From positions 19,189 to 83,188 of IMG/VR virus record IMGVR_UViG_3300025009_000896: DNA of 64,000 nucleotides, one strand, 5' to 3'. Positions 5,505 through 40,203 of this stretch are shown piece after piece (positions within the stretch are counted from its first letter, which is position 1; the number at the start of each line of letters is the position of its first letter). Made by a program: the position numbers and the translations under genes. Origin of the DNA: a virus. The notes below the pieces were generated by a model that was not told the origin of the DNA, did not search any database, and saw nothing but the letters and a program-made list of their open reading frames with translations.

Positions 5505-5779
5505 TGCCCCTCTCCCTACTGCCATAGCGGTAATATTAGCTGAAAAGCACTTATATTCCATGAAAAACGCTTATAAGCAGCTATAATCATTATAAATGTC
5601 CCAATCTTGGTAGCCACGGTACTTAAATAGGAACATTTTTAATGATAAAGGTGATGGCAACACGTTAAAACCGCAAGACCCGGTACACATCTTGATGTAT
5701 CGGGTCTCGAAACTCCTTCTTCCGATTATGGAAAGATGAGCACCGCAAAGGTAATAAAAAATAAGCAGCAGCGTCTTAT

Positions 5780-16437: not shown

Positions 16438-16469
16438 TTTGGAATTGTCAAAACTAAATGCTACCTTTG
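16438..16469 (+). promoter_or_regulatory. Bacteroidota promoter for the glycosylation cluster
   Basis: TTTGGAATTGTC...TACCTTTG with 20-nt spacer. Confidence 0.75.
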
Positions 16470-29538: not shown

Positions 29539-30345
29539 ATGGAAAGAGTTAGTGGTATTTACAGAATTTGCTCAAAAGTTCACCCCGACAGGTTTTATTA
29601 TGGCAGTGCCGTGTGTTTCTCTGAAAGATGGAGGCTTCATCTATTAAAACTCAGGAAGTATAAACATGAAAATGCCAAACTTCAAAATCACTACAACAAG
29701 TATGGCTCAGATGATTTATTTTTTGAGGTGGTTGTAGAGTGTGACGTTGATTCCTTGCTTGCAATAGAAAATACTTATCTTAACCCCCTCCCGTTTTTCA
29801 ATATATGTCCAACGGCGGGGAGCAGTTTGGGTGTTAAGCGTACTGATGAGTATAAGGATAAGATGCGAAGGTCTAAAAAGAATCCCTCCCAAGAGCTAAG
29901 GGATAAAATAGGGATGTCCCTAAGGGGGAACATACCGTGGAATAAGGGTAAAAAATTATCAGAAGAGCATGTTAGGAAACTGAGCGAGTCTCATATGGGA
30001 TACGTGCCCACGGATGAGCATCGTAAAAATCTCAGCAAGGCGAATATGGGGCGAAAAATGACTGATGAACAGCGGGAGCGGGTGAGATTGCGGATGATTG
30101 GAAACACAAACGCGGCGGGGCGGATTATATCTGACGAGACCCGAGAAAAACTGAGTAAAGCCCTTCGTGGGAAAAAGAGATCAGAGGCCGAGGCTAATAG
30201 ACTAAGAACAATAGGGATAGGTCGGCACCCAAACGAAGAAACGAGAAGAAAAATAAGTGAAGCGTCAAAGGAGATGTGGCGAAGGCGTAGGGAGGCGAAA
30301 CTGTTAATGTTAGAGGAATCCCAAAACCATAGTTCTGAGGATTAA
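29539..30345 (+). CDS. GIY-YIG homing endonuclease with NUMOD3 repeats
   Basis: SGIYRI...FYYGSA...RW..H...LQNHYNKYG; repeated SEEH.RKLSES / SDETREKLS. Confidence 0.92.
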   Translation: MERVSGIYRICSKVHPDRFYYGSAVCFSERWRLHLLKLRKYKHENAKLQNHYNKYGSDDLFFEVVVECDVDSLLAIENTYLNPLPFFNICPTAGSSLGVKRTDEYKDKMRRSKKNPSQELRDKIGMSLRGNIPWNKGKKLSEEHVRKLSESHMGYVPTDEHRKNLSKANMGRKMTDEQRERVRLRMIGNTNAAGRIISDETREKLSKALRGKKRSEAEANRLRTIGIGRHPNEETRRKISEASKEMWRRRREAKLLMLEESQNHSSED

Positions 30346-30971: not shown

Positions 30972-31658
30972 ATGCAATTAAAGGATATAGATGTTTCAAG
31001 ACTATCATTCGACATATTTGATAGCGACTTCACAACGACTATAAAAGAAAAGATACCTGAGTTCAACGAATACGAAGGAGTGATACCTGAGTTAGACGTA
31101 TTCAGGTTTGTTGTTATAATGTGGGATATGAAGTCTCCTATGTTACGTGAGGTTGATGACTATTATGCACGTATGTATGCTACCGCATCAATGGTGGGGT
31201 TCCCAAGGACTAAAAACAACTTCAGCAAGGAGGCAGACGAGATAATCATAGGTAAGAATGAGAGCGTGAACAGGATGATAGTAGCCTATACTGCGTACAT
31301 GGGCGTACCCGAGTATCAGTACCTAATGGCTTATCAGGCGCTGTTCGCAAGTGAATACGCTAAAGTTTTGAGGGGCAAGGGCGGCAAGGACAGCGACAAG
31401 ATATTAGAGAACGCAAGCGGGAAGGTCACTAAGTTCACGAGGGCTATCTTCGGGTCGGGAGACTACGATGAGTACTCTTTGAGGAGACAGGCGTTGTATC
31501 AGAAGATTGAGAAAGACAAATTAAGATTAAGACCCGAGCAGATCATCAGGGACTTAACGGATAACGGAGATTTGCCTGAAGACTTTAACCCCTACGGTGA
31601 CTACTCTATCGATATAAATAAGGATATTAAGTTCGTTGGTGATGGCAAAGAAGGTTGA
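30972..31658 (+). CDS. putative terminase small subunit or packaging-associated protein
   Basis: Directly upstream of and overlapping TerL; positional inference only. Confidence 0.45.
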   Translation: MQLKDIDVSRLSFDIFDSDFTTTIKEKIPEFNEYEGVIPELDVFRFVVIMWDMKSPMLREVDDYYARMYATASMVGFPRTKNNFSKEADEIIIGKNESVNRMIVAYTAYMGVPEYQYLMAYQALFASEYAKVLRGKGGKDSDKILENASGKVTKFTRAIFGSGDYDEYSLRRQALYQKIEKDKLRLRPEQIIRDLTDNGDLPEDFNPYGDYSIDINKDIKFVGDGKEG

Positions 31659-33978
31659 TTACACCGAACTTTACGTTCCGGCTGACACTGTTTTTGCAAT
31701 TAATAACCTCGATCCAGATCGAAAGACTATCGTTTTGTCTCTGCCCAAACCACCGAACGTAAACACTATTGATAATTTTGGCCTACACCCTGACGAACAG
31801 TATTTCAAACGGTGGAAGACACCTAAGAAGCTATTAACTATTGAAAAAGAGGTCTTAAGAGAACTTCAGGATATTCAAAAGGGCAACAGACAGGAGACTG
31901 TAACGGGGTATAAAATAATTGACAAGTTCTGGGATAAGGTAGAAGAAGAAAGGGACGACTTAGAGGCAGAGATAGACTTCATTAAGAAGCTGTGGTGGCA
32001 TAGGATGAACGGCTATTGGTTCTACAACGACGGCAAACCAACGTACATAACCGGAAGGCACTTCATGTTCCTGAACTTCTTTTATCAACCCGATATAACT
32101 ACTAACGACGGGTACCCTGAGTACAGAGACAGACACCGGAGGGAGTTTCTATTCAGAGAGTATCTGAGGCACGCTACCGAGACGTTTGCCAAGAGAGATG
32201 AAAGAGGGTGGGCTGTGCCTAATGCTGATGGTAGTTATGATATGATTGATGTGGGGTCGAGAGTAAGCTATGGAGACATACATCCTAAGTCCCGAAGGAA
32301 CGGTTCTACAATGATGGCATTGTGTGATATGATTGAAAGTTCGGAAAGGAGTTTTGGTATCTACTCTACTATAATTTCAAAAGACGGTGAGGCCACCGAG
32401 GAGCACTACAACCTTAAGCTACTTCCTTCGTGGGTAATGAGGCCGTATTTTCTTAAACCCGTGTGGCAGGGATCGTCCCAACCAACGCAGATAAAATATT
32501 TTCCTCCTAAAAACTACTACGGCAACGAAGCCCTGATGAGTGTCATTGACTACACCGTATCGGCCTCGGAGACTAAAAAAGATGGGTCTAAGTTTAATGG
32601 AGAACTCGTATGCGATGAGGAGGGCAAGGTTTCTGGATTAGGAGTCAACGTCTTACAGAGGTGGGACGTAAATAAGAACGCACTTGCCCTTGGTGACGGT
32701 ACTAAGATATTAGGATACTCTACTCACATCTCAACGGTAGAAGACATCAATGCTGCGGGTATGGCCTTCTTGGATATGCTTGAACTCTCTGACTTTTATC
32801 AAAGGGGAGAGAGTGGGCAGACTACATCAGGTCTTATGGCTCACCTGTATCCTTCTTATGACGGTCAGGAAAACTTCATAGATCGGTATGGTATGTCAGT
32901 CATTGACACCCCCACAGACCGACAGTGCCGCTTATCTCATTCAGCAATCTTCGCTACGCTTAAAAAGGGAGCCAAGCAATATCAACAGGAAAAGAGAGAT
33001 GACTTCTTAAAGAAGGGCACCCCTGCTGCTATGCAGTCTTATAGGGCTTATGTTAAGAAGTACCCGTGGAAGACAAGCGAACTCTATATGTCAACAGTCT
33101 CAGACATGGGCTTTGACTATGAGATACTTGACACCCGAATCATGGAGTTGAGGAAGATGAAGTCCTTGGGTAAGATGCCATATAAGGTCGGGAACTTCTA
33201 CCGTGAGGGAGACCCGTTAGAGGGTAGGGTATATTGGAAGACAGAACCCGAAGGGAAGTTTGAGTTATCCATGGAACTTAAGCCTGAAGAAGCAAATCTT
33301 AAACGTAAAACTTTGGTTTGGGATGGCACTAAGATGTCTATGGTGCCAGCTTGGGAGCCTGTTTATAAAACGAGGTTTACCGCAGGGGCTGATCCATTTC
33401 GTTTCAGGAACAGCAAAGACATCACCACTAATAAGCAATCTGATGGCGGAATAGCAGTATTATGGCACGATTTTTCTAAGCCCAATAAGTCAGAGAATAG
33501 GAAGTTTGTATTGTCATATAGGTATAGACCTCATACATTAGAAGAATACTGTGAGGACTGCATAAAAGTGTGTGAGTATTTTGGGGCTATGTGTTATCCC
33601 GAAAACAACCTCACAGGAGTATATGAGCACTTCATTAAGAGGATGAGGGGCGGATATCTTAAGTACGATCAAGACTCGATCACGGGTCGAGCAAAGGATA
33701 CCCCCGGATATTACGCATCTCCGGGAACAATAAACGACGGGATGTCCCAAATTAAAGATTACATAGTCTTCAATGGAGCAGAAGAAAATCACTTAAGTTT
33801 TTTGGAAGAGGTGCGTGGCATGAGAAGTGTAGATGATTTAACTAATAACGATAGGTTTGCAGCGCACATGGCCAGCTTACTCGGCGCCCTCAGCAGCTAC
33901 GGCAAGGCATCGGATTTTATGAATACTCAAACAATAGACCTCGGGAAAGTCTCTTGGTTACAAAAAAGATCATTTTAA
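31642..33978 (+). CDS. terL: terminase large subunit (crAss-like)
   Basis: GYWFYNDGKPTYITGRH.M.L; KSRRNGST Walker A variant; CDEEGK Walker B; nuclease AGADPF...SDG...YPENN...ND...A. Confidence 0.9.
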   Translation: MAKKVDYTELYVPADTVFAINNLDPDRKTIVLSLPKPPNVNTIDNFGLHPDEQYFKRWKTPKKLLTIEKEVLRELQDIQKGNRQETVTGYKIIDKFWDKVEEERDDLEAEIDFIKKLWWHRMNGYWFYNDGKPTYITGRHFMFLNFFYQPDITTNDGYPEYRDRHRREFLFREYLRHATETFAKRDERGWAVPNADGSYDMIDVGSRVSYGDIHPKSRRNGSTMMALCDMIESSERSFGIYSTIISKDGEATEEHYNLKLLPSWVMRPYFLKPVWQGSSQPTQIKYFPPKNYYGNEALMSVIDYTVSASETKKDGSKFNGELVCDEEGKVSGLGVNVLQRWDVNKNALALGDGTKILGYSTHISTVEDINAAGMAFLDMLELSDFYQRGESGQTTSGLMAHLYPSYDGQENFIDRYGMSVIDTPTDRQCRLSHSAIFATLKKGAKQYQQEKRDDFLKKGTPAAMQSYRAYVKKYPWKTSELYMSTVSDMGFDYEILDTRIMELRKMKSLGKMPYKVGNFYREGDPLEGRVYWKTEPEGKFELSMELKPEEANLKRKTLVWDGTKMSMVPAWEPVYKTRFTAGADPFRFRNSKDITTNKQSDGGIAVLWHDFSKPNKSENRKFVLSYRYRPHTLEEYCEDCIKVCEYFGAMCYPENNLTGVYEHFIKRMRGGYLKYDQDSITGRAKDTPGYYASPGTINDGMSQIKDYIVFNGAEENHLSFLEEVRGMRSVDDLTNNDRFAAHMASLLGALSSYGKASDFMNTQTIDLGKVSWLQKRSF

Positions 33979-33989
33979 TTTTTTATTAT

Positions 33990-33997
33990 TATCTTTG
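33990..33997 (+). promoter_or_regulatory. promoter -7 box for tRNA unit 1
   Basis: TATCTTTG; no clear -33 TTTG. Confidence 0.6.
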
Positions 33998-34001
33998 TGA
34001 C

Positions 34002-34052
34002 ATGAGAATGAATCAACATATAGAGCAGCCGATAAACTTACTTGGTGGGTGA
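34002..34052 (+). CDS. leader peptide 1 (MRMNQHIEQPINLLGG)
   Basis: Short ORF between promoter and terminator; core QHIEQPI matches downstream tRNAs Pro, Ile(UAU), His, Glu, Gln. Confidence 0.75.
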   Translation: MRMNQHIEQPINLLGG

Positions 34053-34072
34053 GGTAACTCTATATTGTATAT

Positions 34073-34103
34073 AGCCCTCCCCACAAGGAGGGTTTTTTGT
34101 TTT
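34073..34103 (+). terminator. attenuator terminator 1
   Basis: AGCCCTCC-CCACAA-GGAGGGTT followed by TTTTGTTTT. Confidence 0.85.
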
Positions 34104-34104
34104 A

Positions 34105-34189
34105 CGGAGTGTAGGTCTGTAGCTGGTAGCAGTCCTGCCTTGGAAGCAGGTGGAGCAATCCCTCGTCGGTTCGATCCCGGCCACTCCGA
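34105..34189 (+). tRNA. tRNA-Pro(UGG) with enlarged variable region
   Basis: Acceptor CGGAGTG/CACTCCG; anticodon arm CCTGC-CTTGGAA-GCAGG; GGTTCGATCCC T arm. Confidence 0.85.
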
Positions 34190-34194
34190 CTTAT

Positions 34195-34265
34195 TGAGGC
34201 TTCGTTTAACGGTAGGACGCACGGCTTATACCCATGTAATCAGAGTCCAATTCTCTGAGCCTCAA
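34195..34265 (+). tRNA. tRNA-Ile(UAU)
   Basis: Acceptor TGAGGCT/AGCCTCA; anticodon arm CACGG-CTTATAC-CCATG. Confidence 0.8.
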
Positions 34266-34267
34266 CT

Positions 34268-34340
34268 GTGTCAGATGCTCGTATGGACAGAGTGACGGAT
34301 TGTGACTCCGTTAGAAGCCAGTTCAAATCTGGTCTGACAC
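34268..34340 (+). tRNA. tRNA-His(GUG)
   Basis: 8-bp acceptor including G-1 (GTGTCAGA/TCTGACAC); ACGGA-TTGTGAC-TCCGT. Confidence 0.88.
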
Positions 34341-34345
34341 CCTAT

Positions 34346-34416
34346 GTTCGGTTCGTCTATCGGTAGGACGGCGGGTTTTCATCCCGTAAAGGCGAGTTCG
34401 ATTCTCGCACCGAATA
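34346..34416 (+). tRNA. tRNA-Glu(UUC)
   Basis: GTTCGGT/ACCGAAT; GCGGG-TTTTCAT-CCCGT; GTTCGATTC. Confidence 0.9.
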
Positions 34417-34421
34417 CATAT

Positions 34422-34492
34422 TGCCCTGTCGTATAGAGGTGGTACACATGGCTTTGAACCATGCGGAGAAGGGTCAGTACCTTCCGGGGCAT
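34422..34492 (+). tRNA. tRNA-Gln(UUG), atypical T loop
   Basis: TGCCCTG/CGGGGCA; CATGG-CTTTGAA-CCATG; T arm GAAGG-GTCAGTA-CCTTC. Confidence 0.8.
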
Positions 34493-34501
34493 CAAAATAA
34501 A

Positions 34502-34532
34502 TTTGCATATTAAATTAAAAGTATTATCTTTG
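34502..34532 (+). promoter_or_regulatory. promoter for tRNA unit 2
   Basis: TTTG-N19-TATCTTTG. Confidence 0.85.
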
Positions 34533-34551
34533 CAGTAATTAAGGCATAAGG

Positions 34552-34626
34552 ATGCAAATGGTAAGAAAAAATATGGTGAATATTGACCGCACAGGCGCAA
34601 CCGTGCGAAAGGGTATCCCCATATAG
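34552..34626 (+). CDS. leader peptide 2 (MQMVRKNMVNIDRTGATVRKGIPI)
   Basis: 22 of 24 residues belong to the 10 amino acids served by the downstream tRNAs. Confidence 0.8.
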   Translation: MQMVRKNMVNIDRTGATVRKGIPI

Positions 34627-34651
34627 TTCTTTGAAAGGATTATTAAGGCGG

Positions 34652-34683
34652 ATGCCCTCACAAAATGGGGGCATTTTTATTTT
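34652..34683 (+). terminator. attenuator terminator 2
   Basis: ATGCCCTCA-CAAAA-TGGGGGCAT followed by TTTTATTTT. Confidence 0.85.
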
Positions 34684-34753
34684 GGCTTATAGTTTAATGG
34701 TAGAACGCCTCGCTGATACCGAGGTAATTCAAGTCCGATTCTTGGTGAGCCAA
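34683..34753 (+). tRNA. tRNA-Ile(GAU)
   Basis: TGGCTTA/TGAGCCA; CCTCG-CTGATAC-CGAGG. Confidence 0.85.
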
Positions 34754-34759
34754 CAACAT

Positions 34760-34830
34760 TGTGGGGTAGAGTAACGGTAACTCGTGGGGCCCATAACCCC
34801 AAGCTGAGGGTTCAACTCCCCCTCCCGCAA
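34760..34830 (+). tRNA. tRNA-Met(CAU), initiator-like
   Basis: TGTGGGG/TCCCGCA; TGGGG-CCCATAA-CCCCA with consecutive G-C pairs. Confidence 0.85.
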
Positions 34831-34836
34831 CTAATT

Positions 34837-34910
34837 GGGAATGTAGCTCGTATGGAAGTAGCTACGGCCTGTTAAGCCGAAGGTAGAAGGTTCGAGTCCT
34901 TCCGTTCCCG
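34837..34910 (+). tRNA. tRNA-Asn(GUU)
   Basis: GGGAATG/CGTTCCC; ACGGC-CTGTTAA-GCCGA; GGTTCGAGTCC. Confidence 0.88.
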
Positions 34911-34914
34911 CAAT

Positions 34915-34986
34915 GCTCTTATGGTGTAATGAACAGCACAGGGGTCTTCTAATCCCTTAGTTTGGGTTTGATTCCTAATAGGAGCA
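34915..34986 (+). tRNA. tRNA-Arg(UCU)
   Basis: GCTCTTA/TAGGAGC; anticodon loop CTTCTAA. Confidence 0.78.
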
Positions 34987-34991
34987 CAAAT

Positions 34992-35066
34992 GCCTTCGTC
35001 GGCCCCTTGGTGGGGAACCAGACTGTCACTCTGGTAAAACAGACGGATCGTAACCGTTCGGGGGCG
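34992..35066 (+). tRNA. tRNA-Asp(GUC)
   Basis: GCCTTCG/CGGGGGC; CCAGA-CTGTCAC-TCTGG. Confidence 0.82.
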
Positions 35067-35069
35067 CAA

Positions 35070-35144
35070 GGGCTGTTCGTATAGTGGCTATTACTTCTGT
35101 TTTGCAAGCAGGAAACGAGATTTCGATTATCTCACAGTCCACCA
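35070..35144 (+). tRNA. tRNA-Ala(UGC)
   Basis: GGGCTGT/ACAGTCC with G3:U70 identity pair; TCTGT-TTTGCAA-GCAGG; encoded CCA. Confidence 0.88.
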
Positions 35145-35146
35145 AT

Positions 35147-35218
35147 GCGGGATAGGTGTTGACACATACACAGGAGTCTTCCAAACTTCAGTAGACGGAG
35201 GGTTACCGTCATCCCGCT
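35147..35218 (+). tRNA. tRNA-Gly(UCC), atypical D and T loops
   Basis: GCGGGAT/ATCCCGC with U73; GGAGT-CTTCCAA-ACTTC; T arm GACGG-AGGGTTA-CCGTC. Confidence 0.75.
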
Positions 35219-35222
35219 CTAA

Positions 35223-35293
35223 GTGATCGTAGCAAATCGGTTATGCCCCGCCCTTTTAAGGCGGTGAGATTGGTTCGACTCCAATCGGTCACA
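35223..35293 (+). tRNA. tRNA-Lys(UUU)
   Basis: GTGATCG/CGGTCAC; CCGCC-CTTTTAA-GGCGG; GGTTCGACTCC. Confidence 0.9.
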
Positions 35294-35298
35294 CAAAT

Positions 35299-35371
35299 GC
35301 GCTCATAGCATAATGGAAAGTGTGCAAGGCTACGAACCTTGGCGGTTGGAGTTCGACTCTTCATGGGCGTA
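35299..35371 (+). tRNA. tRNA-Arg(ACG)
   Basis: GCGCTCA/TGGGCGT; CAAGG-CTACGAA-CCTTG. Confidence 0.88.
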
Positions 35372-35376
35372 CTAAT

Positions 35377-35448
35377 GCTCCATAAGCATTGATGGCGATG
35401 CGCTAGTCTTGTAAACTTGAAAGCAGGGTTCGATTCCTTGATGGAGCT
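35377..35448 (+). tRNA. tRNA-Thr(UGU)
   Basis: GCTCCAT/ATGGAGC; CTAGT-CTTGTAA-ACTTG; GGTTCGATTCC. Confidence 0.88.
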
Positions 35449-35468
35449 CAGGTGGAATTTACAAACTA

Positions 35469-35500
35469 TTTGGAGGTTACAAATCTTTTGTATATCTTTG
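35469..35500 (+). promoter_or_regulatory. promoter of the inserted HNH gene
   Basis: TTTG-N20-TATCTTTG. Confidence 0.75.
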
Positions 35501-35504
35501 TGTT

Positions 35505-35924
35505 ATGGAAAAGAAAAAAGAATGTCCTAAATGTGGAATTAAAAAAACAATAGATTATTTTACTAAGTCTAAATCGCGCAAGGATGGGTTTGGGTCTTTT
35601 TGCCTAGAGTGTGGAAGAAAATACGGGCGGCTTCATTATAAAAATAATAAAGCTGAATATATTAAAAGAATATCCTCTAACAAAGAAAGGGTTCGTGATC
35701 TTTATATAACTCTTAAAAAGTCATATGTATGCAGTAAGTGCGGGGACAATAGATGGTATGTGTTAGATTTTCATCACGAAGGAAATAAGGAATCTGACAT
35801 AGCCCATATGGCATCGGAGGGATATTCAATAGATTCCATTAAAAAAGAGATAGAAAAATGTATAGTGTTATGTTCTAATTGCCACAGAGAATTACATTAC
35901 AAACAAAATGGGGGCATAGTTTAA
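35505..35924 (+). CDS. HNH homing endonuclease inside the tRNA array
   Basis: CPKC...CLEC zinc finger; CSKCG...LDFHH...EIEKCIVLCSNCHRELH; 3' end overlaps tRNA-Val. Confidence 0.9.
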   Translation: MEKKKECPKCGIKKTIDYFTKSKSRKDGFGSFCLECGRKYGRLHYKNNKAEYIKRISSNKERVRDLYITLKKSYVCSKCGDNRWYVLDFHHEGNKESDIAHMASEGYSIDSIKKEIEKCIVLCSNCHRELHYKQNGGIV

Positions 35925-35979
35925 TTGGCAAAACGTTTGTGTTACATACAAGTCATGACGTTCGAGTCGTCTGCCCCTA
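35910..35979 (+). tRNA. tRNA-Val(UAC)
   Basis: GGGGGCA/TGCCCCT; TTTGT-GTTACAT-ACAAG; GTTCGAGTC. Confidence 0.8.
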
Positions 35980-36016
35980 CTAATATTGTTCGATTCCAGT
36001 AGAGACTACAAGTTTA

Positions 36017-36048
36017 TTTGCATATATTAAAAACAATGATTACCTTTG
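36017..36048 (+). promoter_or_regulatory. promoter for tRNA unit 3
   Basis: TTTG-N20-TACCTTTG. Confidence 0.85.
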
Positions 36049-36055
36049 CCTTGAA

Positions 36056-36115
36056 ATGAGAAATTGTTGGTCATATAGTTCGTTTTTACTCTTGCTCTCA
36101 AAGCGAGGTAGATGA
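36056..36115 (+). CDS. leader peptide 3 (MRNCWSYSSFLLLLSKRGR)
   Basis: Core CWSYSSFLLLLS; downstream tRNAs are Leu, Leu, Ser, Tyr, Ser. Confidence 0.8.
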   Translation: MRNCWSYSSFLLLLSKRGR

Positions 36116-36137
36116 CCTATATATCCATATAGCATAG

Positions 36138-36168
36138 ACCTCGCCCATAAAGCGGGGTTTTTTATTTT
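36138..36168 (+). terminator. attenuator terminator 3
   Basis: ACCTCGC-CCATAAA-GCGGGGT followed by TTTTTATTTT. Confidence 0.85.
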
Positions 36169-36244
36169 GCTCCGGTAGCCCAATTGGTAGAATGGCAACG
36201 GGTTTAAGCCCCGTTCAGTGTCGGTTCGAATCCGACTCGGAGTA
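36169..36244 (+). tRNA. tRNA-Leu(UAA), short variable loop
   Basis: GCTCCGG/TCGGAGT; ACGGG-TTTAAGC-CCCGT; GGTTCGAATCC. Confidence 0.88.
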
Positions 36245-36249
36245 CAAAT

Positions 36250-36325
36250 GCCGCAGTAGCAGAATTGGCACGTGCGTTAGTCTTAGAAACTAATAGTTAT
36301 GTGAGTTCGAATCTCACCTGCGGTA
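36250..36325 (+). tRNA. tRNA-Leu(UAG), short variable loop
   Basis: GCCGCAG/CTGCGGT; TTAGT-CTTAGAA-ACTAA; GTTCGAATC. Confidence 0.88.
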
Positions 36326-36329
36326 CTAA

Positions 36330-36421
36330 GGATGGGTGAACCCCAGTTGGCCTAAGGGGGACGGTCTTGAAAACCGTAGGTCGCTCAAAACGGCGTGGGG
36401 GTTCGAGTCCCTCCCCATCCG
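36330..36421 (+). tRNA. tRNA-Ser(UGA)
   Basis: GGATGGG/CCCATCC with G73; ACGGT-CTTGAAA-ACCGT; long variable arm. Confidence 0.9.
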
Positions 36422-36427
36422 CAATAT

Positions 36428-36496
36428 GGGAGTAATTCTTTGGAGAAGACGGGTCTGTAACACCCCAAATAGAAAGTTCGATGCTTCCTACTCCCA
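36428..36496 (+). tRNA. tRNA-Tyr(GUA), compact or degenerate
   Basis: GGGAGTA/TACTCCC; CGGGT-CTGTAAC-ACCCC; short D and variable regions. Confidence 0.65.
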
Positions 36497-36501
36497 CTAA
36501 T

Positions 36502-36586
36502 GGAGGGCTGCTGTAATGGTATCAGAGCGGTTCGCTAAACCGTCCGTCAGCAATGGCGTGGCAGGGTTCGACTCCCCCGTCCTCCG
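36502..36586 (+). tRNA. tRNA-Ser(GCU)
   Basis: GGAGGGC/GTCCTCC with G73; GCGGT-TCGCTAA-ACCGT; long variable arm. Confidence 0.85.
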
Positions 36587-36635
36587 CACTGATTTCTCAC
36601 ATTCACTATCTTTGTGGATATAAAAATATCCGCAA

Positions 36636-38993
36636 GTGATTAGACTCGAAAAGTATATCGGCGGGATAAGCCCAAGTAGAGACATAGCCCCCGAGAAAAA
36701 GACAGAAGTATATTGTAGAAAAAATGCCGAGTTTCTGTATGGTCTTTGGTGCGGATCGGCCACAGCTTGGGGCTATGACTCCCTCTCGTTTTTTAATGAG
36801 ATGCGGCAGTATAGCAATGGGGCTCAGGATACAAATCAATATAAAAGTTTTTTAACCAACTCGGGGGCAAATAACTCTGAGACTTTTAGTCTGTATGATA
36901 ATGATGCAGGCATAACGCAACGAGCAAAACGCGACGGATATTATAACCTGCTATGGCAGAATCTTTCTCCTGCGCCGAAGATTCTCAATGCATTACACGG
37001 GGCTTTGGGTTCTTATGATTACGATCTTTACTGCGATACCATAGATGCCAATTCGAGGGGATTGGTAGAGTTTGAAAAGTTTAAGAAGTTTCACGAGGCT
37101 CGTGATATAAAGTGGCAAACGGAATATAAAACTAAGGCAGGTATCCCCGTCGACGAAGACGCTAACTTTCCTAAGACACTTGAGGAATTAGAAGCCTTCT
37201 CCGCAAGGGAAGGGTTTAAACTGAATATAGCCCGTGCTATGCAGAAGGTGCTAAGGCATGGGTTTAATGTCAGCGATTGGGACGGGTCTATCAGGAAGAA
37301 GCTGTTAGACGACCTTATTACTTTAGGCTACTGCGCCGCAGAAGACTTGTATGACGACGAAGATAGGCTGTTTAAAACACAATGGCTTGACCCCGCAAGG
37401 ACTGTGATGCAATTTTCCCACGAGAAAGATTATTCGGATGCAGAATATGGTGGGCACTTCTCAGAGTGGACAATCTCTAATGTAAGGCGTAAAAGACCTG
37501 ATCTTACTGAAGATGAGTTGTATGCTTTGGCTAAAAACAATAAGGGCAATTTTAACAACCCAACAATACAGTGGGGGGAGAGAACGAGTATGCTTGACAT
37601 AACAAGTAACTCTTACCTTTATGATGACTTCAAGGTAGCAGTGTTTAAGGCTTATTGGATAGATACCGACACTTACAAGAGCCTCTACTATAACAACAAC
37701 TCCGGTCGGGAGATGGTCAAAGAGGTGGGGTATGATGAGAAGATAACCCCCTTAACCAAAAACCAAATAGCTAAAGGCAAAAAGCAAGAGGTAAAACAGA
37801 CTAAAATCAGGGTTGTTTATCAGTGTTCATGGGTAGTGGGGTCTGAGATATGTTGGGATCATGGTAAGCTATTGATGGGTGCAAGGCCGCAGCCGTCTAA
37901 GCCTAAGATACCTATCCACGTTGAGCAGTTGCTACAACCTTCTATTGTCTACAGGCTTAAGCCTATCTTAGACTCAATAGCCTTGACGTGGCTACAGCAT
38001 CAGAACTCTATGGCTAAGATGATAGAGAAGGGCTATGCCGTGAATATGAGCATGTTGATGAATGTAACGATGAATGGGAAGGATGCATTAGACCCTGCTG
38101 GTGTTTTAAATATGTGGAAGCAGACGGGGATTCTACCTTATATGTATGGTGGGGCTAATGGGCAATACCCGGGTGGGGCCGCTATTCCCGTCACTCCTAT
38201 TGACGGAGGATTAGGGAATAGAATACAGGAGACCGCTATGGCCTTAGAGACTAACTTCAAGCTAATTGAGGAGATAGTGGGGATAAACCCTGTTGCAATG
38301 GGGTCTACTCCTACTAAAGACTCACAGGTAGGTACTACCGAGATGGCGATGCAGGCCACATCCAACGTGCTTAAACCTATAGTAGAGGGTATGTTCGAGA
38401 TCAAGCAGAGTCTTGGTTCAAGTTTAATGTTAAGAACACAGATAGGTCTTAGGGTAGATAAAGACATAAGAGATGCCTATGCAGGTATTATCTCTCCTTC
38501 TGATATTAAGTCGTTGGTTTTGGCAGAACACAATAGTGTTCAGTATGGCATTAGCCTTAAGGCCAAGCCTGATGATAAACGTAAAGCTACGCTGCTTAAC
38601 TTCATTACTCTTGAAGTAGAGAAGGGCACATTGGGTTCACCGGAAGGAATGTACTTTGCCGAAAGATTAGAATCGGGTGCAGACATGATAGAACTCCGTC
38701 AGGAGATAGCCTATGCAATAGAAAAAGGACAGCAGCGTAAGATGCAAGAGTCGTTGGCTACTATCCAAGAGCAGAATAAGGGTATGCTTGAAAACGAACA
38801 GCTTAAGGGGCAGAACGAACAGGCTAAGATCAATGCCGAGGGACAGGTGAAGATGGCTGAAGAAGCCCTAAGAGGGGATATAAAGCATAAGTTACAGAGA
38901 CAACAGAATAATGCAGAATTAATGAGCAGACTCTTTGATGATGTGGCTGCTGAAAAAGAAATAAAGAATGACAACACCAGAAGACAGGCTTAA
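36636..38993 (+). CDS. portal protein (crAss-like)
   Basis: 785 aa between TerL and capsid; R.Y..G.Q...YK; IEEIVGIN...GSTP; Q-rich coiled-coil C-terminus; promoter TATCTTTG at 36607. Confidence 0.8.
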   Translation: MIRLEKYIGGISPSRDIAPEKKTEVYCRKNAEFLYGLWCGSATAWGYDSLSFFNEMRQYSNGAQDTNQYKSFLTNSGANNSETFSLYDNDAGITQRAKRDGYYNLLWQNLSPAPKILNALHGALGSYDYDLYCDTIDANSRGLVEFEKFKKFHEARDIKWQTEYKTKAGIPVDEDANFPKTLEELEAFSAREGFKLNIARAMQKVLRHGFNVSDWDGSIRKKLLDDLITLGYCAAEDLYDDEDRLFKTQWLDPARTVMQFSHEKDYSDAEYGGHFSEWTISNVRRKRPDLTEDELYALAKNNKGNFNNPTIQWGERTSMLDITSNSYLYDDFKVAVFKAYWIDTDTYKSLYYNNNSGREMVKEVGYDEKITPLTKNQIAKGKKQEVKQTKIRVVYQCSWVVGSEICWDHGKLLMGARPQPSKPKIPIHVEQLLQPSIVYRLKPILDSIALTWLQHQNSMAKMIEKGYAVNMSMLMNVTMNGKDALDPAGVLNMWKQTGILPYMYGGANGQYPGGAAIPVTPIDGGLGNRIQETAMALETNFKLIEEIVGINPVAMGSTPTKDSQVGTTEMAMQATSNVLKPIVEGMFEIKQSLGSSLMLRTQIGLRVDKDIRDAYAGIISPSDIKSLVLAEHNSVQYGISLKAKPDDKRKATLLNFITLEVEKGTLGSPEGMYFAERLESGADMIELRQEIAYAIEKGQQRKMQESLATIQEQNKGMLENEQLKGQNEQAKINAEGQVKMAEEALRGDIKHKLQRQQNNAELMSRLFDDVAAEKEIKNDNTRRQA

Positions 38994-39189
38994 GTGGGCG
39001 TTTAATATACTCGCTAAGGGTGGTTTAGATTCCGTGGATTTGTATGCAGAGTTAGGCAAGACCGAGGCTTTGGTGGGCGGTATGGGTCTTATGTCTCCAC
39101 CTCCGATGGCTCCGTCAGTCAATTCCGGTATTTCCGAACAACCACCTGTTACGAAGAATCCACAGAACTTAAACAATTTAATGCAGTAA
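38968..39189 (+). CDS. small hypothetical protein
   Basis: ORF overlapping the portal stop. Confidence 0.45.
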   Translation: MTTPEDRLKWAFNILAKGGLDSVDLYAELGKTEALVGGMGLMSPPPMAPSVNSGISEQPPVTKNPQNLNNLMQ

Positions 39190-39192
39190 GCC

Positions 39193-40203
39193 ATGCCGGG
39201 AATACGAATAGGGATTGGGGTTGATAGGAGTAGGCCCATTGGGGTTTCGTGGAATGCGTACTGGACTACACGAACCCCGACAGCGTTAATCTTAACGGCA
39301 TTGTCTCCGACCTCAATCAGGGCAGCATGGACAAATGCGGGAACGGGCTTTGATGGTCATAGTATTGAGTTAAGCACAGACGGGGTAGCATTTACCGAGG
39401 AAGATACCGTGCTTATAGGAACCAATACTCTTGACATTACAGGGCTTGACTCAGGAACTCTTTACTATGTTAGGGTGCGGGCTTACAAGGAGACCGAATA
39501 CAGTCCTTATTGTGATATTGTATCTGAAGAGACAATATCTCTGCCTAGTCAGATAGCTAACTTATATGCGTGGTATGATCCGTCACAACTAACGGGGTAT
39601 AATGATGATGGGGCCGTAGCTCCGCTTTCCGACTTTGGTGGTAGTAATAGACATCTTGCGCAGACAACGGCTGGTTTAAAGGGTATTTACAAGACCAATG
39701 TGTTAAATGGAAAGCCATCAGTGCGCACTGATGGCTCAGATGATTATTGGCAGTTGTATGGAACTTTCCCATCTCAACCTTTTACAGCCTTTTTGGCAGT
39801 GAAAAGGTTGGCGGGGGTTGACTATAAATCAGCATTGGGGACAGGTGGTAGTACAGGGATTATAGCCTTTGCCAATGACACTGAGATAAGAATAGGCAAT
39901 GGAACTGCATTGGCTAAGACAGGACTTGCCTCGCTATTAAACCGTGCAATTATTGTTAGTGCCGTAAATAACGGGGCTAATAGTGTGTTGGCTATCAATG
40001 GGGGCGAGCCTTCATCTGGAAATTCAGGTACTAGTAATGGAGATAGAATTTGCGTAGGTGACCTAGCTTCATCCGGGTCAACCAAGATTAATGCTGATTA
40101 TTTTGATGCTATAATATATACGGGGGCGTTTGACGCAACAGCAAGACGTAGGGTTGAAAAATACTTATCATGGAAATATGCTATTGAGTTAGAGCCTATA
40201 TGA
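39193..40203 (+). CDS. FN3 plus LamG/concanavalin-like virion decoration or fibre protein
   Basis: TGLDSGTLYYVRVRAY (FN3); LYAWYDPS...LNGKPSVRTDGSDD...VEKYLSWKY (LamG-like). Confidence 0.8.
   Translation: MPGIRIGIGVDRSRPIGVSWNAYWTTRTPTALILTALSPTSIRAAWTNAGTGFDGHSIELSTDGVAFTEEDTVLIGTNTLDITGLDSGTLYYVRVRAYKETEYSPYCDIVSEETISLPSQIANLYAWYDPSQLTGYNDDGAVAPLSDFGGSNRHLAQTTAGLKGIYKTNVLNGKPSVRTDGSDDYWQLYGTFPSQPFTAFLAVKRLAGVDYKSALGTGGSTGIIAFANDTEIRIGNGTALAKTGLASLLNRAIIVSAVNNGANSVLAINGGEPSSGNSGTSNGDRICVGDLASSGSTKINADYFDAIIYTGAFDATARRRVEKYLSWKYAIELEPI

Follow-up and report, generated by a model that had tools for sequence, protein, structure and literature searches.

The window, a 64,000-nucleotide stretch of viral DNA, holds 21 tRNA genes in three units, as identified with ARAGORN, Rfam and inspection of the sequence. 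Each unit follows the same order: a Bacteroidota-type promoter, a short ORF (16, 24 and 19 codons in units 1, 2 and 3, respectively), a GC hairpin followed by a U tract, and then the tRNAs, the first of which begins 0-1 nt beyond the U tract. The features, with the evidence for each in brackets, are:

33990-33997, + strand: -7 promoter element of unit 1, TATCTTTG (sequence)
34002-34052, + strand: leader ORF 1, MRMNQHIEQPINLLGG, stop TGA (ORF, conservation, codon match)
34073-34103, + strand: terminator 1, 8-bp GC-rich hairpin and U tract (dG -13.1)
34105-34493, + strand: unit 1 tRNAs Pro(UGG), Ile(UAU), His(GUG), Glu(UUC), Gln(UUG) (ARAGORN, Rfam)
34525-34532, + strand: -7 promoter element of unit 2, TATCTTTG (sequence)
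34552-34626, + strand: leader ORF 2, MQMVRKNMVNIDRTGATVRKGIPI, stop TAG (ORF, conservation, codon match)
34650-34682, + strand: terminator 2, 11-bp hairpin and U tract (dG -15.2)
34683-35449, + strand: first ten tRNAs of unit 2, in the order Ile(GAU), Met(CAU), Asn(GUU), Arg(UCU), Asp(GUC), Ala(UGC), Gly(UCC), Lys(UUU), Arg(ACG), Thr(UGU) (ARAGORN)
35505-35924, + strand: HNH endonuclease ORF within unit 2 (phrog_2255, E 1.2e-32)
35909-35980, + strand: tRNA-Val(UAC), final member of unit 2 (ARAGORN, Rfam)
36041-36048, + strand: -7 promoter element of unit 3, TACCTTTG (sequence)
36056-36115, + strand: leader ORF 3, MRNCWSYSSFLLLLSKRGR, stop TGA, core CWSYSSFLLLLS (ORF, conservation)
36136-36168, + strand: terminator 3, 9-bp hairpin and U tract (dG -11.8)
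36169-36587, + strand: unit 3 tRNAs Leu(UAA), Leu(UAG), Ser(UGA), Tyr(GUA), Ser(GCU) (ARAGORN, Rfam)

ARAGORN found 18 tRNAs in the window at its default settings and all 21 at a lower threshold (-ps90), the additions being Gln (34422-34493), Gly(UCC) (35147-35219) and Tyr (36428-36497). Of the 19 matches to the tRNA clan that Rfam gave at E<=1, 16 exceed the RF00005 gathering score; the Asp and Gly tRNAs are missing from the matches listed at that cutoff, and the Tyr tRNA scores 26.8 bits against a threshold of 29. The inventory of the original prediction, 21 genes in three units, is thus borne out by ARAGORN -ps90 and in part by Rfam. The 83,188-base record is 86% complete, and a default ARAGORN run over it located no tRNAs beyond those of the array. 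The uniform layout proposed for the three units holds for the order of promoter, ORF, hairpin and tRNAs, but unit 2 is broken by the HNH ORF, which has its own -7 element 4 nt ahead of its ATG, lies between tRNA-Val and the remaining ten tRNAs, and overlaps the start of tRNA-Val with its 3' end. The arrays of four relatives (L011, L027, L039 and L166) have no HNH ORF at that site, and Val abuts Thr.

The distance from the -7 element to the ATG is 4 nt in unit 1, with the AUG at or adjoining the predicted +1, 7 nt in unit 3, and 19 nt in unit 2, where TTTG lies ~20 nt upstream of the element. Among homologs it is 4-5 nt for leader 1 (6/6) and 4-7 nt for leader 3 (9/9), and it is exactly 4 nt for both leaders of the cultured Tenacibaculum phage Gundel_1 (see below). 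In the available part of a report on F. johnsoniae, the promoter element ends at G-5 and the transcription start lies 4-5 nt beyond it (PMC6847099); given that geometry, the spacing would put the ATG at about +1. Two longer ORFs of the window phage also show a 4-6 nt spacing, and the phage makes no use of Shine-Dalgarno (SD) motifs, which precede 10 of its 88 ORFs versus a 12.8% background.

At all three leaders, the leader frame alone is open. Under strict wobble, a cognate codon is present in the unit's own leader for 5/5, 10/11 and 4/5 tRNAs of units 1-3, or 19 of the 21, and liberal wobble raises this to 21/21, whereas wrong-unit leaders match only 4/11, 1/5, 2/5, 0/5, 0/5 and 4/11 (strict). 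Random windows from the phage's own ORFs (100,000 draws) gave a strict mean of 9.65 (sd 2.0, maximum 18) and a liberal mean of 11.36 (maximum 19), and neither 19/21 nor 21/21 was reached in any draw, which upholds the predicted match between leader codons and downstream tRNAs. The matched core of leader 1 is QHIEQPI (34014-34034). Leader 2 contains a 20-residue run drawn wholly from the ten amino acids of unit 2; none of 200,000 random windows had a run of 20 or more within this set. Leaders 1 and 2 separate the two Ile isoacceptors, with ATA at H-I-E of leader 1 and ATT at N-I-D of leader 2, each in 6/6 homologs. For leader 3 the match holds for four of five tRNAs (strict), but its Cys, Trp and Phe codons have no corresponding tRNA in the window's record; in relatives, unit 3 runs on into Trp, Phe and Cys tRNAs, which accounts for these unmatched codons. 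The leaders are also impure, in that codons 2-4 and the final 4-8 codons name amino acids of other units.

The three leaders recur in seven other distinct arrays, from other samples, with terminases (TerL) 40-62% identical; complete arrays with all three leader types are L011, L027, L039 and L166, and L028, L053, L054 and L029 are partial. These relatives, which form a single lineage, keep the leader ORFs along with reading frame and core. Indels are in frame, and lengths of homologous leaders differ by whole codons (16 vs 20, 19 vs 20), while changes are synonymous or stay inside the unit's amino-acid set. The core of leader 1 is kept in 6/6 homologs, with four of its seven codon columns varying, three of those purely synonymously; in leader 3, all amino-acid changes are permutations within {C,W,S,Y,F,L}, and the unit 3 tRNAs of L027 are exactly Leu, Ser, Tyr, Trp, Phe and Cys. 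At the same time, leader 2 has a Leu codon in 5/6 homologs and Gln at codon 2 in 5/6, lacks the usual ATG in L028 and includes a Ser codon in L027, and position 11 of leader 1 is ATT in L011 and L027, a codon that Ile(UAU) does not read.

In Gundel_1 the tRNAs are grouped differently, and its two leaders are altered to match. Leader A (MKTKLYSYSCFSSWFKNRAG) stands ahead of Tyr, Trp, Phe, Ser, Cys and Ser, a unit with no Leu tRNA and no Leu run in its leader; leader B (MKTNNLHIQQNNLPVFLEGFLYM) stands ahead of Pro, Gln, Met(CAU), Asn and Leu(UAG), with no Glu tRNA in the unit and no E in the core. All 11 tRNAs are matched by their own leader; the other unit's leader matches 1/5 and 2/6, the null mean is 4.46, and 11 was reached in 0/100,000 draws. 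Judging by the motifs that it has in common with the homologs, Gundel_1 may be distantly homologous to them. The co-variation of leaders with anticodons that had been anticipated is therefore seen in Gundel_1, but it is imperfect and fails where tRNAs were lost: codons outlast their tRNAs in the window's leader 3 and in L174/L183, where leader 1 is unchanged ahead of a collapsed Pro-Trp-like-Phe-Cys remnant. No leader was found in Bacteroides phage DAC19, which has 3 tRNAs, or in TerL relatives with 1-2 tRNAs; the leader-gated design is not universal.

The three leader terminators, placed at 34073-34094, 34650-34676 and 36136-36160 in a scan for hairpins with U tracts, are the longest-stemmed among nine terminator-like sites in 31000-40000. 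That number of sites is not above shuffles (mean 6.8, sd 2.7), as would be expected if short ORFs and terminators merely happened to precede blocks of tRNAs. Such a coincidence has next to no probability, and it is refuted, as far as sequence statistics can do so, by the codon-match statistics (the leader 2 run, the window and Gundel_1) and by the recurrence of the three leaders in seven further arrays.

The end of each leader ORF had been proposed to be complementary to the 5' arm of its terminator, and such pairing was found in all three units. With a modelled ribosome sitting on the core, the arm of terminator 1 pairs with GUGAGGUAACUCU, a segment running across the stop codon; that of terminator 2 (GGAUGCCCUCA) pairs with AGGGUAUCC, the leader codons G-I-P; and that of terminator 3 pairs with GCGAGGU, 4-10 nt ahead of the stop codon. 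The proposed switching of this pairing by ribosome position was likewise reproduced in modelled folds. In MFE structures of window leaders 1 and 3, the terminator is kept both in the ribosome-free state and when a ribosome occupies the stop codon, and it is lost upon a stall on N, Q, H, I or E of leader 1 (0/8 pairs) or on S, Y, S, S, F, L or L of leader 3 (0/9 pairs). When nascent RNA was folded, the antiterminator was left by stalls at a set of positions that covers the matched core in 20/20 distinct leaders, and matched residues are enriched at those positions (221/42 vs 45/68 pooled; 35/9 vs 5/7, p 0.026, for the window alone); Gundel_1 shows the same boundary of matched residues at the stall window. 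Across the leader 3 alignment, the antiterminator is paired in 93.6% of cells, versus 25-58% when slid, and the 1:2 helix in 93.4%, with a CG/UA exchange in this helix by which the stop codon (TGA vs TAA) is linked to a codon of the core. Double changes are seen at few pairs (2/16, 2/29 and 4/18). In equilibrium folds the terminator is never lost in L027, L039, L011 (leader 1) and L166 (leader 3), and in 5/20 leaders half or more of the arm stays paired even when the ribosome sits at the stop codon. Among 200 shuffles, 1-40 reached the switch statistic and 3-53 reached the antiterminator dG of leader 1. Folding thus lends moderate support to a trp-type switch, in which a core stall would give the antiterminator and a ribosome at the stop codon the terminator.

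Perhaps the hairpins instead set tRNA dosage, either by terminating constitutively and in part or by serving RNA processing, the ORFs being untranslated and the codon match a side effect of constraints such as structure-forming CAUAUAG motifs or U-rich first positions. The cores are indeed highly conserved in nucleotides and lie inside predicted helices, which could explain some of the conservation even if no leader is translated, and the unit 3 amino acids have UNN codons, a set that U-rich periodic sequence would mimic. We nevertheless give this account little credence: random draws never matched as well as the window or Gundel_1, the leader frame is the only open one, homolog lengths differ by whole codons, third-position changes in leader 1 are synonymous, the ATG is kept at the predicted +1, and the point where matched codons give way to unmatched ones agrees with the stall window.

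The sign of the regulation could also be the opposite, with good leader translation allowing a coupled ribosome to suppress the terminator so that the tRNAs are read, and failing translation shutting them off. According to the part of one report available to us, an intrinsic terminator a few bp past a gene can be suppressed by a ribosome that closely follows RNA polymerase (PMC4824070). Here the stop codons lie 20-26 nt ahead of the terminator stems, so that the hairpins are beyond blocking by a terminating ribosome; in the models such a ribosome covers the segment that otherwise sequesters the terminator 5' arm, and the matched codons fall in the window where a stall favours the antiterminator. 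We consider this opposite sign very unlikely.

Our preferred reading, to which we assign a probability of about three in four, is that these are three ribosome-mediated transcription attenuators, one per tRNA operon, in a phage of a Bacteroidota-type host, and that each tRNA block is probably made only when ribosomes read its codons slowly. Transcription would begin at a sigma-ABfr-type promoter and, in units 1 and 3, with the AUG no more than a few nt from the predicted +1, a ribosome could load once the 5' end emerges. The ribosome would then meet a core that lists codons read by the downstream-encoded tRNAs. Fast decoding of all of these would bring it to the stop codon, where it would cover region 2, located at or around the ORF's end, and leave the terminator 5' arm free, so that the terminator forms and transcription stops just before the first tRNA. 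If any cognate aminoacyl-tRNA were scarce, the ribosome would stall in the core, region 2 would pair with the terminator 5' arm as the antiterminator, and RNA polymerase would enter the tRNA genes. The sequence shows the anatomy, its statistics and its conservation, and modelling shows the switching; leader translation, the sign and size of the response and the cause of the tRNA depletion are inferred. Without a ribosome, units 1 and 3 are predicted to terminate through a 1:2 hairpin of core codons with region 2, and unit 2 to read through.

This last prediction bears on a further possibility, that the attenuators report general translation capacity (ribosome availability, stringent conditions, infection stage) or amino-acid starvation rather than specific tRNAs, the roster merely following from the sampling of many codons. 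If unit 2 reads through as modelled, a lack of ribosomes would be enough to induce it; leader 2 samples ten amino acids that make up about 58% of phage residues, and a stalled ribosome cannot separate a missing from an uncharged tRNA. At the same time, the rosters are unit-specific and mutually exclusive, isoacceptors are told apart by ATA versus ATT, and the rosters re-sort with the tRNAs in Gundel_1, none of which a general sensor needs. On balance we regard general sensing as unlikely.

The proposed attenuators resemble the enterobacterial multivalent leaders, thr (Thr and Ile) and ilvGMEDA (Ile, Leu and Val), in having a short leader (its translation predicted here) with codons naming several inputs, an intrinsic terminator and an antiterminator chosen between by ribosome position, and a 1:2 hairpin for the untranslated state (here in units 1 and 3). 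They differ in that they regulate tRNAs rather than biosynthetic enzymes, list 5 to 10 amino acids once or twice rather than runs of one to three kinds, sit on an mRNA that is predicted to be leaderless, in a phylum that lacks SD sequences, and are phage-borne, three per array. The four-region logic is common to the trp operon leader, and the Rfam model Trp_leader (RF00513) matches leader 3 at 36062-36165 over positions 1-100 of 100 (27.7 bits, E 0.0098, below the gathering score of 41), but only one of twelve core codons is Trp and no trp gene lies downstream. The E. coli pheST attenuator, in which a leader peptide senses the cognate aminoacyl-tRNA of phenylalanyl-tRNA synthetase, likewise places a component of the translation apparatus under leader peptide control; it has one amino-acid input and controls protein genes, whereas in the phage units the sensed tRNA would be the gene product itself, giving a direct feedback loop. 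T-boxes, which control synthetase and amino-acid genes mostly in Firmicutes, also make a terminator/antiterminator choice in answer to tRNA status, but they bind uncharged tRNA directly and require no translation; Rfam gave no T-box match at E<=1 in 33500-37000.

The trn operon of Anabaena sp. PCC 7120, with 26 tRNA genes, is silent until translational stress, its control being assigned to the transcriptional repressor TrcR in the available parts of two reports (PMC8421152; PMC10272220). As far as those parts go, it too is an accessory tRNA array turned on when translation is impaired, as we propose here, but it is chromosomal or plasmid-borne rather than phage-borne and no codon-matched leader is described for it; 'attenuat' and 'leader peptide' have no occurrences in the text of PMC10272220. 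We found no published account of codon-matched leader attenuators on phage tRNA arrays, and the predicted element would be a new form of leader-peptide attenuation. A role in countering anticodon nucleases or starvation, as suggested in the original prediction, is conceivable. What each leader would sense is charged tRNA, and tRNA loss and amino-acid starvation would be indistinguishable to it. If the mechanism is true, its net effect would be a multi-input negative feedback on tRNA supply, operon by operon.

The window covers bases 19189–83188 of a source record of 83,188 bases, estimated by CheckV to be 86% complete; the best DNA matches come from groundwater metagenomes, perhaps the source sample. 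The tRNA array lies between the terminase and portal genes. The original prediction had counted 21 tRNA genes in three units, and ARAGORN returns that number when its threshold is lowered, in three blocks with 1–5 nt spacing; default settings give 18, and Rfam gives 19 tRNA-clan matches, 16 of which score above the gathering score. The three blocks stood, but unit 2 is not continuous, being split by an HNH endonuclease gene (35505–35924) that has its own promoter, sits between tRNA-Thr and tRNA-Val with a 16-nt overlap with the latter, and is missing from that place in relatives. The flanking genes and the leader ORFs are as follows.

31636–33978, large terminase gene (phrog_6681), one flank of the tRNA array
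36636–38993, portal gene (phrog_6547), the other flank of the tRNA array
Leader ORF 1, MRMNQHIEQPINLLGG, 16 codons, single open short frame before unit 1
Leader ORF 2, MQMVRKNMVNIDRTGATVRKGIPI, 24 codons, single open short frame before unit 2
Leader ORF 3, MRNCWSYSSFLLLLSKRGR, 19 codons, single open short frame before unit 3

The predicted common layout is present in all three units: ahead of each block stand a -7 promoter element, a single short open frame and a hairpin followed by a U tract, and in each the first tRNA begins 0–1 nt past that tract. The three leader hairpins are the three longest-stemmed terminator-like sites within 9 kb, with dG values of -11.8 to -15.2. Since there is no space for a further promoter after the U tract, the blocks can be transcribed only by read-through of the terminator, which is thus an attenuator by position.

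Some of the tRNAs (Pro, Asp, Gly, Tyr) may be atypical or decaying. tRNA-Pro(UGG) at 34105–34190 is 86 nt long, compared with 74–76 nt in relatives, and has a low Rfam score (39.5 bits); tRNA-Asp and tRNA-Gly are not listed by Rfam at E≤1, and tRNA-Tyr falls below the gathering score. Across 34105–36587 the units sort roughly according to first codon base. The CNN amino acids Pro, His and Gln are in unit 1, along with Ile(AUA) and Glu; amino acids with ANN and GNN codons fall to unit 2, which adds Arg(CGN); and unit 3, once the Trp, Phe and Cys tRNAs of relatives are counted in, serves every UNN amino acid as well as Leu(CUN) and Ser(AGY). Combined, the cores of the three leaders cover all 20 amino acids.

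The correspondence between leader codons and downstream tRNAs, also claimed originally, is borne out by counting. For each tRNA we asked if any readable codon occurs in its own leader, under strict wobble or under a liberal rule in which U34 reads four-codon boxes. Strict wobble gave matches for 5/5, 10/11 and 4/5 tRNAs in units 1, 2 and 3 (19/21 in total), and liberal wobble for 21/21, while matches against the wrong units ranged from 0/5 to 4/11. Length-matched random windows of the phage’s own ORFs yielded a mean of 9.65 matches (sd 2.0, max 18), and none of 100,000 such draws reached 19. A second measure, the longest run of residues within the unit’s amino-acid set, was compared with 200,000 random windows; the figure for leader 1 is conservative because Met was included in the set.

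Longest within-set runs in the leaders and number of random windows (of 200,000) doing as well
Leader 1, set of unit 1 tRNAs plus Met: run of 7, 87 windows
Leader 2, set of unit 2 tRNAs: run of 20, 0 windows
Leader 3, set of tRNAs present in the window: run of 5, 828 windows
Leader 3, set of the relatives: run of 12, 0 windows

The expression signals indicate a host of Bacteroidota type, since the promoters are of the TTTG / TAnnTTTG kind, Shine-Dalgarno motifs are not enriched (10/88 ORFs, versus 12.8% of random 17-mers) and the regions upstream of phage ORFs are A-rich, all features described for Bacteroidota (PMC6847099). A sigma-70 promoter scan was uninformative here (16 found, 17.2 expected). 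The -7 element lies 4, 19 and 7 nt upstream of the ATG of leaders 1, 2 and 3, respectively; the distance is 4–5 nt in 6/6 homologs of leader 1, 4–7 nt in 9/9 of leader 3, and exactly 4 nt in both leaders of the cultured Tenacibaculum phage Gundel_1 (see below). Given that in F. johnsoniae 4–5 nt separate the start site from the end of the promoter element at G-5 (PMC6847099), this spacing predicts that the mRNAs of leaders 1 and 3 and of the Gundel_1 leaders should begin at or adjoining the AUG, with the AUG at about +1. Two longer ORFs of the phage have similar spacing. In a 103-codon ORF at 16469 (genome position 35657), 6 nt separate a TACCTTTG element from the ATG that follows it, which suggests that near-leaderless mRNAs may be a general feature of this phage.

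The original prediction further held that the end of each leader ORF is complementary to the 5’ arm of the terminator. In our models such a segment (region 2, the candidate antiterminator strand) is located at or near the stop codon in all three leaders, at -1 to +11, -14 to -6 and -10 to -4 relative to the stop, and it overlaps or abuts that codon. We folded the leaders in ViennaRNA with a 28-nt ribosome footprint masked at each A-site position. In equilibrium folds of leaders 1 and 3, the terminator forms without a ribosome and with a ribosome at the stop codon, and is lost on stalls at N, Q, H, I, E (leader 1) or S, Y, S, S, F, L, L (leader 3). Leader 2 forms the antiterminator when free and when a ribosome stalls anywhere from Q to A; with the ribosome at the stop it terminates. 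A hairpin between the core codons (region 1) and region 2, which would end transcription on an untranslated leader, is predicted for leaders 1 and 3; leader 2 folds to the antiterminator when free. The proposed switch appears in these folds; four homologs never lose the terminator at equilibrium, and shuffle controls are moderate (see below).

Folds of the nascent RNA omit the 3’ arm of the terminator and therefore model the kinetic choice better. In these, a stall in the core is predicted to sequester the terminator 5’ arm in 21/21 instances (at least 58% of arm nt), and the span of stall-competent positions covers the matched core in 20/20 distinct leaders, with the 5’ arm free at the stop codon (less than half of its nt paired) in 15 of the 20. 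The competent span is enriched in matched residues, at 221/42 versus 45/68 in pooled counts that are not independent, and at 35/9 versus 5/7 (p 0.026) for the window’s leaders alone. In Gundel_1, the boundary of the competent span coincides exactly with the end of the matched core. For most instances of leaders 2 and 3, at most one of 200 shuffles does as well in antiterminator dG, but for leader 1 the real value is better than only 147–197 of 200, and the switch statistic is reached by 1–40 of 200 shuffles. In alignments, antiterminator pairing holds in 88–94% of cells, versus 25–62% when the pairing is slid (pair counts exclude alignment A2, where MAFFT misregistered the leader 1 terminators). 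Double changes are few. The region 1:region 2 hairpin of leader 3 is paired in 93.4% of cells, with one CG/UA exchange that links a core codon to the TGA/TAA stop.

Relatives were sought in JGI metagenomes and IMG/VR with an alignment of the large terminase (TerL), which has 274 homologs at E≤1e-30; together with an initial IMG/VR scan by TerL alone, which had given 4 loci at 38% identity, none with tRNAs, this yielded 164 loci. Arrays of at least three tRNAs occur in 7/164 loci (L011, L027, L028, L029, L039, L053, L054), and the order of the three units is identical in all seven. Two leader-derived patterns brought in L166 and the pair L174/L183, as well as L167, which is the L039 contig again. 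A 17-letter leader 1 pattern run against IMG/VR hit 22 loci, 18 of which we took as chance, with no array on the pattern’s strand: 15 lacked tRNAs altogether, and the other 3 had just one tRNA-Gly each, on the opposite strand. No RNA dataset is listed as matching this stretch, and the contigs of four runs show only that relatives carrying these leader variants exist in further samples. The promoter, short ORF and terminator layout was not seen in TerL relatives with only Thr/Met tRNAs (L006, L008, L009, L030, L087), and Bacteroides phage DAC19, inspected by eye, has three tRNAs with no leader or terminator.

The leader 1 core QHIEQP is kept in 6/6 homologs, the leader 2 core NM(V/M)NIDR in 6/6, and leader 3 reads WCSYS.. 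or CWSYS.. in 9/9. Homologous leaders differ in length by whole codons, three of the four variable codon columns of the leader 1 core contain synonymous changes only (CAA/CAG in two of them, all four CCN codons in the third), and the amino-acid changes in leader 3 are all reshuffles within {C,W,S,Y,F,L}, such as CW/WC and SSFL/SFSL/SLFS. Judged by sequence comparison, these three patterns are signs of selection on the leader reading frame.

The prediction that leaders co-vary with the anticodons behind them fared less evenly: it holds in Gundel_1, where 11/11 tRNAs are matched, and fails in two places where orphan codons persist. The first is leader 3 of the window, which retains C, W and F codons without matching tRNAs. 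In relatives, unit 3 goes on with Trp, Phe and Cys tRNAs (all three in L027), so the unmatched codons are left over from tRNAs lost by the phage of the window. The second is L174/L183, where leader 1 and its terminator precede a collapsed remnant (Pro, Trp-like, Phe, Cys) that looks as if a deletion had fused unit 1 with the tail of unit 3; the collapsed array stands behind an intact promoter, leader 1 and terminator (L174:4300–5000, minus strand; same sequence as L183).

Other variation concerns individual loci. At L028:1722–1876, leader 2 has TTG in place of ATG, and the extra codons read from the TTG (G, T, T, R, K, N) are all for unit 2 amino acids. A fourth leader before Phe/Cys in L028, L053, L054 and L029 was considered and rejected, as the gap is tRNA-like sequence: its 161–163 nt contain anticodon loops resembling those of Ser(GCU) and Trp(CCA), read by eye and missed by ARAGORN. 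The position of the array varies too. The window has terminase, array and portal in that order (31636–38993); the array is directly upstream of the terminase in four of L011, L027, L028, L039 and L166, and a portal-like ORF follows the L166 array. ORF insertions recur in the arrays, at differing points among phages.

L053:571–1023, ORF carrying cysteine pairs and His motifs, placed between the Gly and Thr tRNAs
L166:5316–5700, inserted ORF between Tyr and Ser(GCU) tRNAs
L028:464–1876, 1.4 kb separating units 1 and 2
L188:5735–6241, HNH gene of Gundel_1, between the leader B terminator and tRNA-Pro

The pattern resembles a traffic of homing endonucleases into tRNA arrays. At 29539–30345, upstream of the window’s terminase, there is a free-standing GIY-YIG / NUMOD3 homing endonuclease gene. 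Intein or homing-endonuclease Pfam domains (PF05204, PF05203, PF14528) occur in several terminase homologs with about 400 extra residues (P0003, P0008, P0028, P0029, P0031, P0056 and P0109); the window’s terminase has none of these domains.

A blastn search for cultured close relatives with the whole array, and with leaders 3 and 2 alone (E≤10), returned only tRNA-level or chance matches, and a tRNA-level match pointed to Gundel_1 (MT732474, our L188), where the tRNAs are grouped differently. Leader A (MKTKLYSYSCFSSWFKNRAG, L188:4880) and its terminator are followed by Tyr, Trp, Phe, Ser(UGA), Cys and Ser(GCU); no Leu tRNA belongs to this unit, and leader A lacks the run of Leu seen in leader 3 of the window. 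Leader B (MKTNNLHIQQNNLPVFLEGFLYM, L188:5530) and its terminator are followed by the HNH insert and then Pro, Gln, Met(CAU), Asn and Leu(UAG); here the H-I-Q-P core has gained Asn and Leu codons, and Glu is gone together with its tRNA. Gundel_1 has no His tRNA. The 11/11 own-leader matches compare with cross-matches of 1/5 and 2/6, and with a null of mean 4.46 (max 10) in which 11 was reached in 0/100,000 draws. The published description of the phage gives only ‘ten tRNA genes’, and ‘attenuat’ and ‘leader’ appear 0 times in its text (PMC8776804). A CAUAUA(G) motif lies in region 1 at 34016–34025 and 36072–36080 of the window and at L188:4897–4905 and 5547–5555, and pairs with a CUAUAU-type region 2 in leaders 1 and 3 and both Gundel_1 leaders. 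This common motif suggests that the leader cassettes are paralogs that diverged through editing of their rosters.

Set against known systems, the leaders follow the logic of trp, his and thr-type attenuation. A short ORF appears to be placed for translation behind the promoter and ahead of the tRNAs, its control codons are cognate to the tRNAs of the operon, a predicted intrinsic terminator stands between it and the first tRNA, and in silico an antiterminator would use the terminator 5’ arm together with the segment covered at the stop codon. Leader 3 even matches Rfam Trp_leader (RF00513) over its full length, although below threshold (27.7 bits at 36062–36165; gathering score 41). Unlike those attenuators, the phage leaders regulate tRNA genes, carry a roster of 5–10 amino acids in place of a run drawn from one to three kinds, are predicted to have leaderless mRNAs, and form a modular element in a phage. 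They are not T-boxes; no T-box covariance model match was found at E≤1 in 33500–37000 with all 4227 Rfam families. The nearest published regulation of a tRNA array that we found is that of the Anabaena trn operon, which is induced by translational stress and whose control is assigned to the repressor TrcR (PMC8421152, PMC10272220). The original prediction knew of no such leaders described for phage tRNA arrays, and our full-text literature search, with subscription journals outside its coverage, likewise turned up no description of tRNA genes being controlled by leader peptides.

We regard the anatomy of the leaders, as read from sequence, and its non-random nature as secure. That they work by attenuation, which is well supported in silico, we consider probable (roughly 75%). 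Far more tentative, and in our estimate rather unlikely in its full extent, is the broader proposal that such leaders are modular translational tRNA gauges widespread in Bacteroidota phages, that is, leaderless mini-mRNAs that would poll their own tRNAs codon by codon and release the block on demand, with the array otherwise silent, so as to replace host tRNAs lost to shut-off or to tRNA-cleaving defence, and whose roster would evolve with the array and record its recent losses. Control of the tRNA blocks by their leaders is directly testable, as a cultured phage-host pair with the same design exists in Gundel_1 and Tenacibaculum sp. AHE14PA; the phage is deposited at DSMZ (PMC8776804).

The tRNA arrays of phages tend to be viewed as constitutive codon-usage helpers or as decoys against tRNA-cleaving defences; a built-in translational sensor of tRNA supply would mean that phages regulate their tRNA output unit by unit. 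Such a sensor would carry leader-peptide attenuation beyond amino-acid metabolism to the tRNA genes themselves, in a direct product-feedback loop that takes as many as eleven inputs, and would provide biosensors for single codons with a compact template found in nature.
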